IMG/VR virus record: IMGVR_UViG_2698536435_000005
Source of the DNA: a virus
Lineage: Duplodnaviria; Heunggongvirae; Uroviricota; Caudoviricetes
DNA: 4,503 nucleotides
Reading direction: 5' to 3' (one strand)
Positions 955-4,503 of this stretch are shown piece after piece (the stretch's first letter is position 1; every line of letters starts with the position of its first letter). A program made the position numbers and the translations under genes. Below the pieces are notes generated by a model, which was not told where the DNA came from, searched no databases, and saw nothing but the letters and a program-made list of their open reading frames with translations.

Positions 955-1110
955 TTACTTCCTGGATTCGTAGTCTACGAAGACAGCGACCTCCGTCTGG
1001 CCGGTTCGGATTCGTACCTCACAGAGGTCTTTCCTCGTTACCAGTGCCGTCACTATGACGGTTAAACAGATGACGATCAGGGCGATTAACATCGCCTTTT
1101 GCTGCTTCAT
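955..1110 (-). CDS. hokD: Hok/Gef-family type I toxin (51 aa): MKQQKAMLIALIVICLTVIVTALVTRKDLCEVRIRTGQTEVAVFVDYESRK
   Basis: From memory, near-identical over the first ~45 residues to E. coli HokD (RelF) and Gef (HokC), with a single TM helix and the conserved RKDLCE motif. ATG at 1108-1110 is preceded by AAGGAG with a 9-nt spacer; TAA at 955-957. The frame is open in-frame upstream to an ATG at 1167 (70-aa track ORF), which I read as a mok-like frame fused in-frame to hok. Confidence 0.85.
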   Translation of the reverse strand: MKQQKAMLIALIVICLTVIVTALVTRKDLCEVRIRTGQTEVAVFVDYESRK

Positions 1111-1114
1111 AGCC

Positions 1115-1200
1115 TGCTTCTCCTTGCCTTTCGGCATGTAAGAGGCTAACCTACATGTGCAAAGCATGAAATTGGCCTCAGATTAATGTTAAGCGTCTTG
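1115..1200 (+). ncRNA. candidate Sok-like antisense RNA region (approximate coordinates, not resolved)
   Basis: Inference only. In hok/sok loci Sok is transcribed antisense across the mok start region; here the mok-like ATG (1167) and its GAGG SD lie ~114 nt into the predicted hok mRNA. I could not pin a convincing plus-strand -35/-10 pair or terminator. Confidence 0.25.
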
Positions 1201-1286
1201 CCGGACGCGTAATGTTAACTGGGGCTTTTCTCTATCTGCCTTTTGGTGTTCATGCCTGAAGCAGATAGCCTCAAGCACCCGCAGTC

Positions 1287-3022: not shown

Positions 3023-3769
3023 CTACTTAACAACCCTCGAATGGCTAACATTCGGACGCCAGCTCTCCCAGTTAAAATTCACCCAGCGCCCGCCGTTCAT
3101 GACCATGCGATCCATCACCCGCTCGCCGAGCAATGTTTTCATCACCTCATAGTTCAGGTTTGTCAGCATCCCCACGCTGCGCATCGACGCTGTCCGGCGA
3201 TCAACAATCTGGTGCAGCACCACCTGCTCGTTTTTCGTCTCGCGCTGAATGCCAATTTCATCAAGAACCAGCAGATCCACTTCGCACAGCTCCCGCAAAA
3301 ATTTTTCGCCTGACTGCCCGTCGTCATAGCTGGCGTGCAGGGCGCTCATAACATCAGCCACGGTAACCACAATCACTGTCTGACCGTCTTTCAGCAGGCG
3401 ATTCCCGATAGCTGCCGCTAAGTGATTCTTCCCGGTACCAGGTTTTCCGCTGAACGCAAAATTTGTACACCCGGTCATCAGTTCATCGGCGATGGATTTC
3501 GCCTGGCTTAACGCGTATCGCTGGCCGTCGTTCTGCACCTGGTAATTCGCAAACGAGCATTTACGGTGCAACGGCTGGATGCCTGAGCGATTCAGAATTT
3601 TTTCCACCCGCAACTGGCGATTCAGGCGGTTGATCTCCTCGCTACGTTTCTGGCCTTCAGCAAGTTGCCACTCGCGCCACTCCGCTACCGTTCTGAATGG
3701 GGCGGTTACATGTGGCGGGGTCAGTCGGCGGATGCGTTCCAGAACGCCGCCTGTCGCAATATTTTTCAT
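3023..3769 (-). CDS. dnaC: DnaC-family AAA+ helicase loader (phage P-equivalent replication protein), 248 aa
   Basis: Clear similarity to E. coli DnaC along the whole length, from memory: Walker A FSGKPGTGKNHLAAAIG, Walker B DLLVLDEIG, and RSGIQPLH...CSFANY and MLTNLNYEVM...LGERVMDRM blocks. ATG at 3767-3769 follows the upstream TAA (3776-3778) by two codons. Confidence 0.9.
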   Translation of the reverse strand: MKNIATGGVLERIRRLTPPHVTAPFRTVAEWREWQLAEGQKRSEEINRLNRQLRVEKILNRSGIQPLHRKCSFANYQVQNDGQRYALSQAKSIADELMTGCTNFAFSGKPGTGKNHLAAAIGNRLLKDGQTVIVVTVADVMSALHASYDDGQSGEKFLRELCEVDLLVLDEIGIQRETKNEQVVLHQIVDRRTASMRSVGMLTNLNYEVMKTLLGERVMDRMVMNGGRWVNFNWESWRPNVSHSRVVK

Positions 3770-4123
3770 GGTCCGTTACCCCCTGAAGCCTGGCGGGATC
3801 GCACTGTCCGGCAACGAGACGGTGTTAACCTGTCGGAGCAACGTCTCAGGCCGAACACCTTTCGGCGCGAACAGGCCCTGGTATTCATTGGCGATGCTGT
3901 GTCGAATCACCTGCTCAGGTGTAAAACCCTGCTGACGGAATTTTTCCAGTTCCCGTATCGCCCCGTTAGCGCCCTGCTCCGTTCGAATCGGTTTTCGCAA
4001 TGCCTGTCTGAACCGGACCCACTCATGCCAGAGTGTTTCCGGCAACCAATCGGGCAGCTCAATAGCCTCCGGCTCGAATTTTTTAGACGCTCGTTTTTGG
4101 CGAGGGGGAGATCAGTATTTAGA

Positions 4124-4174
4124 TCTTCCTCTTCCTCTTCCTCTTCCTCTTCCTCTTCCTCTTCCTCTTCCTCT
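4124..4174. repeat. perfect hexanucleotide tandem repeat (TCTTCC)8 + TCT on plus, (GAAGAG)n on minus; encodes Glu16 in minus frame B
   Basis: Read directly: 8.5 identical units with no interruptions, 51 bp. Confidence 0.95.
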
Positions 4175-4198
4175 GGTAACGCTTTTTGATCCGTTTGT

Positions 4199-4217
4199 GT
4201 AACGCTGGCAGCGTTAC
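4199..4217. repeat. perfect 19-bp palindrome GTAACGCTG-G-CAGCGTTAC (dyad GTAACGC-N5-GCGTTAC), with an extra direct half-site GTAACGC at 4176-4182
   Basis: Read directly. Lies inside the initiator gene just upstream (minus sense) of the hexamer repeat. Candidate protein-binding site (iteron or operator). Confidence 0.5.
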
Positions 4218-4406
4218 CTTTTCGTTTCAGTTCGCGTATTTTTGTTACTCGCTCGTTTGTAACCGCCCGTTTTTTTTAGAGCTTTTTCCGTTATGACGTT
4301 CAAAGTTAGGTAGAGAAAGCCCTCCGTCATTTTCGACCAGCCATCCAACCTGAATTAACGCATCAGCAAAACCAGACATAAAAGTGATGCGATCTATTGC
4401 ACTTTT

Positions 4407-4427
4407 TGTAACGCCGCGAGCGTTACA
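4407..4427. repeat. second copy of the same dyad: TGTAACGC-CGCGA-GCGTTACA
   Basis: Read directly. Shares the GTAACGC-N5-GCGTTAC half-sites and spacing with the 4199-4217 palindrome, ~210 bp away, inside the initiator N-terminal coding segment. Confidence 0.5.
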
Positions 4428-4503
4428 ATCTGCATTACCGTCTGGATTTGCCCCTATATTTCCAGACATCTGTTATCACTTAACCCATTACAAGCCCGCT
4501 GCC

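Follow-up and report, generated by a model that had tools for sequence, protein, structure and literature searches.

Conserved dyads and an adjoining polypurine tract as a candidate lambda-type replication origin within phrog_2509 initiator genes

What purpose is served by a set of inverted repeats with identical half-sites that lie within the coding sequence of a phage replication initiator? The question is raised by a stretch of 4,503 nucleotides (the window, here meaning the whole of the DNA analysed) that comes from a Rac-like lambdoid prophage and covers its replication and early region. The coding strand of the region is the minus strand, and the best database matches to the window are E. 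coli prophages with 90–97% identity. Apart from the remnant of the initiator gene and ydaV (Table 1), the product of which is presumed to be the partner of the initiator C-terminal domain, the window contains genes for DUF977, a zinc-ribbon protein, QueH, hok/sok and DUF1367. The gene for the epoxyqueuosine reductase QueH, located in the prophage early region, spans 1338–2024 on the minus strand (PF02677, 1.9e-65). The hok/sok-type locus, a type I toxin-antitoxin system, occupies 1105–1280 (minus strand) and 955–1167 (minus strand), with the sok RNA (Rfam RF01794, 117 bits) overlapping the Hok-like ORF.

Table 1 Features of the window that relate to the proposed origin.
Feature	Position	Strand	Remarks
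Dyad 1 (cluster 1), GTAACGC-N5-GCGTTAC with spacer CGCGA, GTAACGCCGCGAGCGTTAC	4408–4426		8-bp arms reach 4407–4427
Dyad 2 (cluster 2), GTAACGC-N5-GCGTTAC with spacer TGGCA, GTAACGCTGGCAGCGTTAC	4199–4217		9+1+9 symmetry
Terminal half-site GTAACGC (GCGTTAC on the coding strand)	4176–4182		adjoins the polypurine tract
Degenerate half-site GCATTAC	4432–4438		1 mismatch; neighbouring arm 12 bp away
GTTAC-N10-GTAAC	4244–4263		weak site
Polypurine tract (GAAGAG)8, poly-Glu	4124–4174	− (coding strand)	counterpart of the family-wide (GAGAA)4-5; putative site of unwinding or loading
Initiator remnant (ydaU position; phrog_2509 type)	3776–4442	−	5' 144 nt missing; two frameshifts
ydaV, DnaC/IstB-like AAA+ helicase loader	3023–3769	−	PF01695, 1.1e-19
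IS2 end	4443–4503		100% match to IS2 ends

An earlier note on this DNA, made from the sequence of the window, had described a perfect 19-bp palindrome, a second dyad with the same half-sites and spacing, and an extra half-site, all of which are indeed present (Table 1). The note also stated that the 7-mer is limited to these sites in the window, which is incorrect: GCGTTAC is found at 2215–2221 too, where the zinc-ribbon gene has its 3' end. This additional copy is confined to near-identical relatives (L004 and L005, at +2326), and hence probably reflects chance. The window contains six copies of GTAACGC/GCGTTAC compared with 0.44 expected, and none of 200 shuffled sequences reached this number. 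It contains two perfect 19-bp dyads, while shuffled sequences average just 0.16 matches when up to three mismatches are allowed.

Dyad 1 coincides with the codons for C-N-A-R-G-V-T, a predicted loop of the N-terminal domain (residues 50–56 in the structure model), while dyad 2 falls in the DNA of the inter-domain linker (G-N-A-A-S-V-T). The terminal half-site falls in another reading frame (GCG TTA CCA, encoding A-L-P). A comparison with enteric homologues reveals that the degenerate half-site corresponds to the third arm of their cluster 1 (order > > <). The weak site has as its counterpart in intact enteric homologues two direct copies of GTTACAAA, 15 bp apart, and the GGTTACAAAC motif of this site is conserved in the enteric footprint. 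It is possibly an auxiliary site.

The repeats had been placed inside the initiator gene, which is correct as to their location, but the gene itself is not intact. With ydaU of Rac 442/2 used as reference for the intact homologue, the window copy begins at nt 145, because the IS2 end fills the remainder of the window. The IS2 junction (4442/4443) falls at about codon 48, and the insertion has split off the first 144 nt of the gene from the part in the window, together with the upstream dyad that is found at −32 in close relatives. Two frameshifts are present in addition: an insertion of 2 nt in a T8 run at 4270–4277 (A8 instead of A6), and a 10-bp deletion at 4109/4110 between CCCCCT repeats. 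The copy furthermore carries 30 nt of additional GAAGAG units relative to Rac 442/2 ydaU. As a consequence of the IS2 truncation and both frameshifts, the initiator gene in the window is a pseudogene and an origin at this location could act only with initiator supplied in trans. The window module is an inactivated relic. Many copies from E. coli and Shigella have related frameshifted C-termini (e.g. P0001, P0010 and L001), so that decay of the initiator gene seems to be common.

The intact homologue is a protein of 262 residues that matches phrog_2509 ('replication initiation protein'), a family with members in epsilon15, TL-2011b, Xanthomonas CP2, PAN70, Ralstonia phages and many prophages. 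A literature search covering oriJ, ydaU/ydaV, epsilon15 and organiser-gene iterons retrieved no published origin for this initiator family. Profile searches of the N-domain gave no match to Pfam (PF04492 was also unmatched), the search of NCBIfam returned nothing for the initiator except a weak DnaT tail, and the N-domain had no match among PDB sequences. The structure model of the N-domain is confident for residues 10–90 and displays a helix-helix-helix-hairpin core, with weak winged-helix matches. Assignment of the initiator to the λ O family (Phage_rep_O) was considered and rejected, given the lack of a Pfam match and an hhalign probability of 0.1% against λ O. The N-domain is found fused to varied C-domains, i.e. 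DnaT-like PF17948, DUF1627 and the λ O-like C-domain of YdaU (P0017–P0030, epsilon15), and the downstream partner of N-domain genes varies between DnaC-like, DnaB and RuvC proteins. This pattern indicates domain shuffling around a constant, putatively origin-binding module.

We retrieved 74 loci using the peptide pattern PNF[ED][RK]HNG, which is located outside the dyads, and added six annotated phages. In about 40 loci, GTAAC-N9-GTTAC is present at +148..+160 and +337..+392 from the start codon, and a dyad at the first of these positions is a feature of most homologues. The loci with these dyads come from Enterobacterales, pseudomonads, Burkholderiales, Planctomycetota, Akkermansia, Ignavibacteria and others. 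Protein identity among dyad-bearing homologues is 40–70%, and the dyads are kept where the coding sequence has diverged to 40–55% identity; the conservation that had been proposed as a check of the iteron reading is thus observed. A repeated perfect dyad (6-bp arms) occurs in 43 of 79 gene windows, compared to 3 of 411 control flank windows, while about a third of the loci are without a repeated in-gene dyad. Half-sites with at most one mismatch are present at 13.7 per kb within −150..+520 and at 2.5 per kb outside. At least 542 relatives were found on viral contigs. Conservation of the arms is 98% or higher among 76 distinct enteric sequences, whereas the spacer and ordinary third codon positions vary.

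The half-sites fall into clusters. Cluster 1 contains two to four half-sites in the homologues, and cluster 2 contains three to seven, placed at 11–12 bp steps and typically in the order > > < <. Enteric copies possess an additional cluster at −55..−9, in the non-coding DNA upstream, that places a dyad 14–32 bp from the start codon and beside the ribosome-binding site. No such upstream dyad was found outside Enterobacterales, and the insertion of IS2 has removed this cluster from the window copy.

Are the dyads maintained as DNA, or by way of the protein they encode? In the codon alignment, the site takes the form GGT AAC GCn nnn nGC GTT ACn, and its synonymous positions do not vary. Codons were counted in 47 genes with GC3 values of 0.38–0.79. 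Within the arms, Val is encoded by GTT in 45 of 47 cases (179/614 elsewhere), Asn by AAC in all 47 (254/450 elsewhere), Gly by GGT in 33 of 39 (137/742 elsewhere) and Ser by AGC in all 28 (156/606 elsewhere); the sequences counted are related, and Fisher-test p-values for these contrasts therefore overstate independence. Judged by these alignments and counts, selection acts on the dyads at the level of the DNA and not at the level of the protein.

The half-site sequence itself differs between clades. Six clade-specific dyad variants can be distinguished, each of which is present at both sites in the gene. GTAACGC represents the majority class. Seven loci have GTCACGC-N5-GCGTGAC, in which an Asn-to-His change is paired with a synonymous change from GTT to GTG, and single loci have GTTGCGC-N5-GCGCAAC or CTAACG-N7-CGTTAG. 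Phage Raharianne contains GTAGACG-N6-CGTCTAC at +154 and +370, while TGTCCGC-N7-GCGGACA is found in both phiPSA1 (+65 and +365) and epsilon15 (+66 and +345). The dyad class tracks the N-domain tree. Furthermore, the initiator N-domain is the only feature that always accompanies the sites, as neighbouring genes differ across the phages. On the basis of this comparison, the dyads co-evolve with the initiator N-domain.

A second conserved feature adjoins the dyads. In all dyad classes, C[CT] and AGAGAAGAGAAGAGAAGAGAAG, i.e. (GAGAA)4-5, come in turn after the last half-site, and the repeat translates as REEKRREE. Cluster 2 and this tract both fall between the N-domain and the C-domain, in the DNA of the inter-domain linker. 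Among 79 loci, 51 have the tract as the longest purine run of the entire ~5.4-kb locus (median length 23 nt). It is GA-rich, with an A+T content of about 50–60%, rather than strongly AT-rich. When the motif is defined by peptide and not by purine content, Arg is encoded by AGA in 66 of 66 codons, compared to 121 of 1386 elsewhere. In E. coli-type copies the repeat unit is GAAGAG, and the purine runs of 8–49 nt form a microsatellite that is length-polymorphic among close relatives. The window copy is the longest allele, with five units more than Rac 442/2. The alignments indicate that the tract is part of the same conserved element as the dyads.

A verrucomicrobial clade (L035–L040, L045, L049, L054, L056 and L057) contains N-domain homologues that have neither in-gene dyad pairs nor a long tract. 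Alternative in-gene dyads were sought in this clade, and none were found. Single TGTAACGC half-sites are located ~57 bp upstream of the start in these loci, and in several of them also just past the stop codon. The sites may have been relocated in this clade, or the genes may have a non-phage role.

The arrangement of cluster 2 and the tract matches that of oriλ. Like the element described here, oriλ is embedded in the gene of the initiator, where it falls in the linker that joins the DNA-binding N-domain to the C-domain that binds the loader. The iterons of oriλ and the putative ones here are 18–19 bp long, are internally dyad-symmetric and fall at roughly +350..+430 of the gene; the lambda record shows four TCCCTC-N6-GAGGGA iterons at +349..+433 of O. 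Both elements have a purine run on the coding strand just downstream of the iterons (in lambda, 18 nt at a distance of about 20 nt), both have the helicase loader as the next gene, and in both the iteron type follows the N-domain type. For lambda O, the modularity of the N-domain and iterons with respect to the C-domain is known. The two differ in half-site sequence and in number and placement of the iterons: lambda has four in tandem, whereas two full dyads are present here in clusters about 200 bp apart, with the upstream one added in enterics, and one of the clusters is in the DNA that encodes the N-domain. The tract consists of a GA pentamer or hexamer repeat in place of the A-rich run of lambda, and the loader is DnaC-like in place of λ P.

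The reading as lambda-like origin iterons inside the initiator gene is hence supported by the conservation of the dyads, by the co-ordinated changes between clades and by the oriλ-like layout. From this comparative evidence, we consider it probable that the dyads are initiator-binding iterons and that together with the polypurine tract they constitute a lambda-type origin within the initiator gene. Our confidence is higher for the part that concerns binding sites than for the mechanism as a whole; the identity of the binder, the unwinding of the DNA and the firing of the origin are what we infer.

The Rac oriJ region of K-12 (ydaU-ydaV) shares both the genomic position and the initiator C-terminal domain, and the DNA of its ydaV is about 90% identical. 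In contrast, K-12 YdaU has an unrelated N-domain of the DUF1376 type and its gene is devoid of GTAACGC dyads, which rules out that the present N-domain and repeats are those of oriJ. The linker-coding region of K-12 MG1655 ydaU does contain direct and inverted ATGTTCAAACA repeats (record ~1421504–1421577). These repeats are candidate oriJ iterons, and would parallel the GTAACGC element. Initiator-binding repeats within the initiator's own gene also occur in Gram-positive phages with origins in replisome-organiser genes (SPP1 oriL in gene 38, and lactococcal phages), of which both the initiators and the repeats are unrelated to the GTAACGC family.

Could the dyads serve exclusively as autoregulatory operators, through which the initiator or another repressor throttles its own gene, with the origin located elsewhere? 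Iteron-binding initiators often autoregulate, which counts towards this explanation, as does the proximity of the enteric upstream dyad to both start codon and ribosome-binding site. Selection at the DNA level is furthermore compatible with any protein-binding role. However, a consensus scan revealed no promoter-like sites in 3900–4503, two of the three clusters are buried deep within coding sequence, and the upstream site is missing outside Enterobacterales. An operator function would also leave unexplained the arrays of half-sites at helical spacing and the polypurine tract that invariably adjoins them, and the layout is a copy of that of oriλ. A purely regulatory function thus appears unlikely. 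The upstream enteric site may have regulation as a side-role, and autoregulation may exist alongside the origin role.

A function at the level of RNA was also considered, with the dyads forming hairpins in the mRNA or in an antisense transcript that affect stability, RNase III processing, pausing or termination. The dyads do fold as 8–10 bp hairpins of −10.1 to −13.9 kcal/mol (z-scores −2.2 to −3.9), a single terminator-like match was found (plus strand, 4199–4217), and symmetric changes in the arms would preserve pairing as well. Yet direct half-sites that remain unpaired are conserved at the same 11–12 bp steps, and 33 of the 34 dyads with one mismatch have a non-wobble change, these changes occurring at arm positions 1 and 7 and being uncompensated. 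T-tails follow merely 3 of 85 dyads in the sense direction and 22 of 85 in the antisense direction, and no Rfam match was obtained at the dyads. We reject RNA hairpins as highly improbable.

The alternative raised in the earlier note, binding by a Ren-like or other HTH protein, finds no support. A winged-helix protein (DUF977) is indeed encoded two genes downstream of the initiator, and YdaT, a cII-like protein or a repressor could be proposed in the same way. The genes neighbouring the initiator are, however, wholly different among epsilon15, TL-2011b, PAN70, Raharianne and phiPSA1, ranging over methylase, Roi, repressor, DnaB, DnaC-like and RuvC genes, and the two-site pattern persists regardless. 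With the initiator N-domain as the constant partner and the dyad class following its phylogeny, there is very little probability that another protein of the module is the binder, and this explanation was rejected. Finally, the notion that a repeated peptide motif (N-A-x-S-V-T plus an acidic/basic linker) is what is selected, with the DNA symmetry as by-product, can be dismissed. It is true that G-N-A-x-[SG]-V-T hardly varies in the N-domain and is found again in the linker, and that REEKRREE is widespread. However, synonymous positions are fixed regardless of GC3, the Arg of the motif is always AGA, copies of the half-site exist in a second frame as well as in non-coding DNA, and the change from Asn to His is matched by a silent one.

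For the preferred reading, in which the dyads are iterons and the winged-helix-like N-terminal domain of the initiator, itself a product of this DNA, is what binds them, the following mechanism can be proposed. Initiator dimers would bind GTAACGC half-sites in the loop-coding part of the N-domain and, about 200 bp away, in the linker, each of which contains one cluster; intact enteric copies have a further cluster shortly before the start codon. The resulting nucleoprotein complex would destabilise the adjoining purine/pyrimidine tract, following which the C-terminal domain would recruit the DnaC-like YdaV and the host DnaB helicase.

It is conceivable, though we regard it as doubtful, that the (GAGAA)n/(GAAGAG)n tract is not a passive AT-rich unwinding element but the active device of a transcription-coupled origin. 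Transcription of the tract would yield a purine-only RNA that could form an unusually stable R-loop on the pyrimidine template; alternatively, the tract duplex could form H-DNA. Initiators with DnaT-like C-domains could exploit either structure for helicase entry, whether PriA-type or loader-mediated. If true, the DNA code of a transcription-coupled origin would have been stamped into protein ('NAxSVT', 'REEKRREE') across bacterial phyla.

The biological impact for the window itself is small, as its module is an IS2-disrupted relic. For the large and uncharacterised phrog_2509 initiator family, the element provides a candidate origin at nucleotide level, which may be of use in annotating prophage origins and in the design of phage-derived replicons. 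The six dyad classes can be matched to N-domain clades, and would thereby allow specificity determinants to be predicted. Since the synonymous constraint observed here is not translational, it also serves as a warning for codon-based tests of selection. The element represents a case of overlapping codes, in which a putative DNA-binding site and a purine repeat would dictate conserved peptides and rare AGA codons across phyla.
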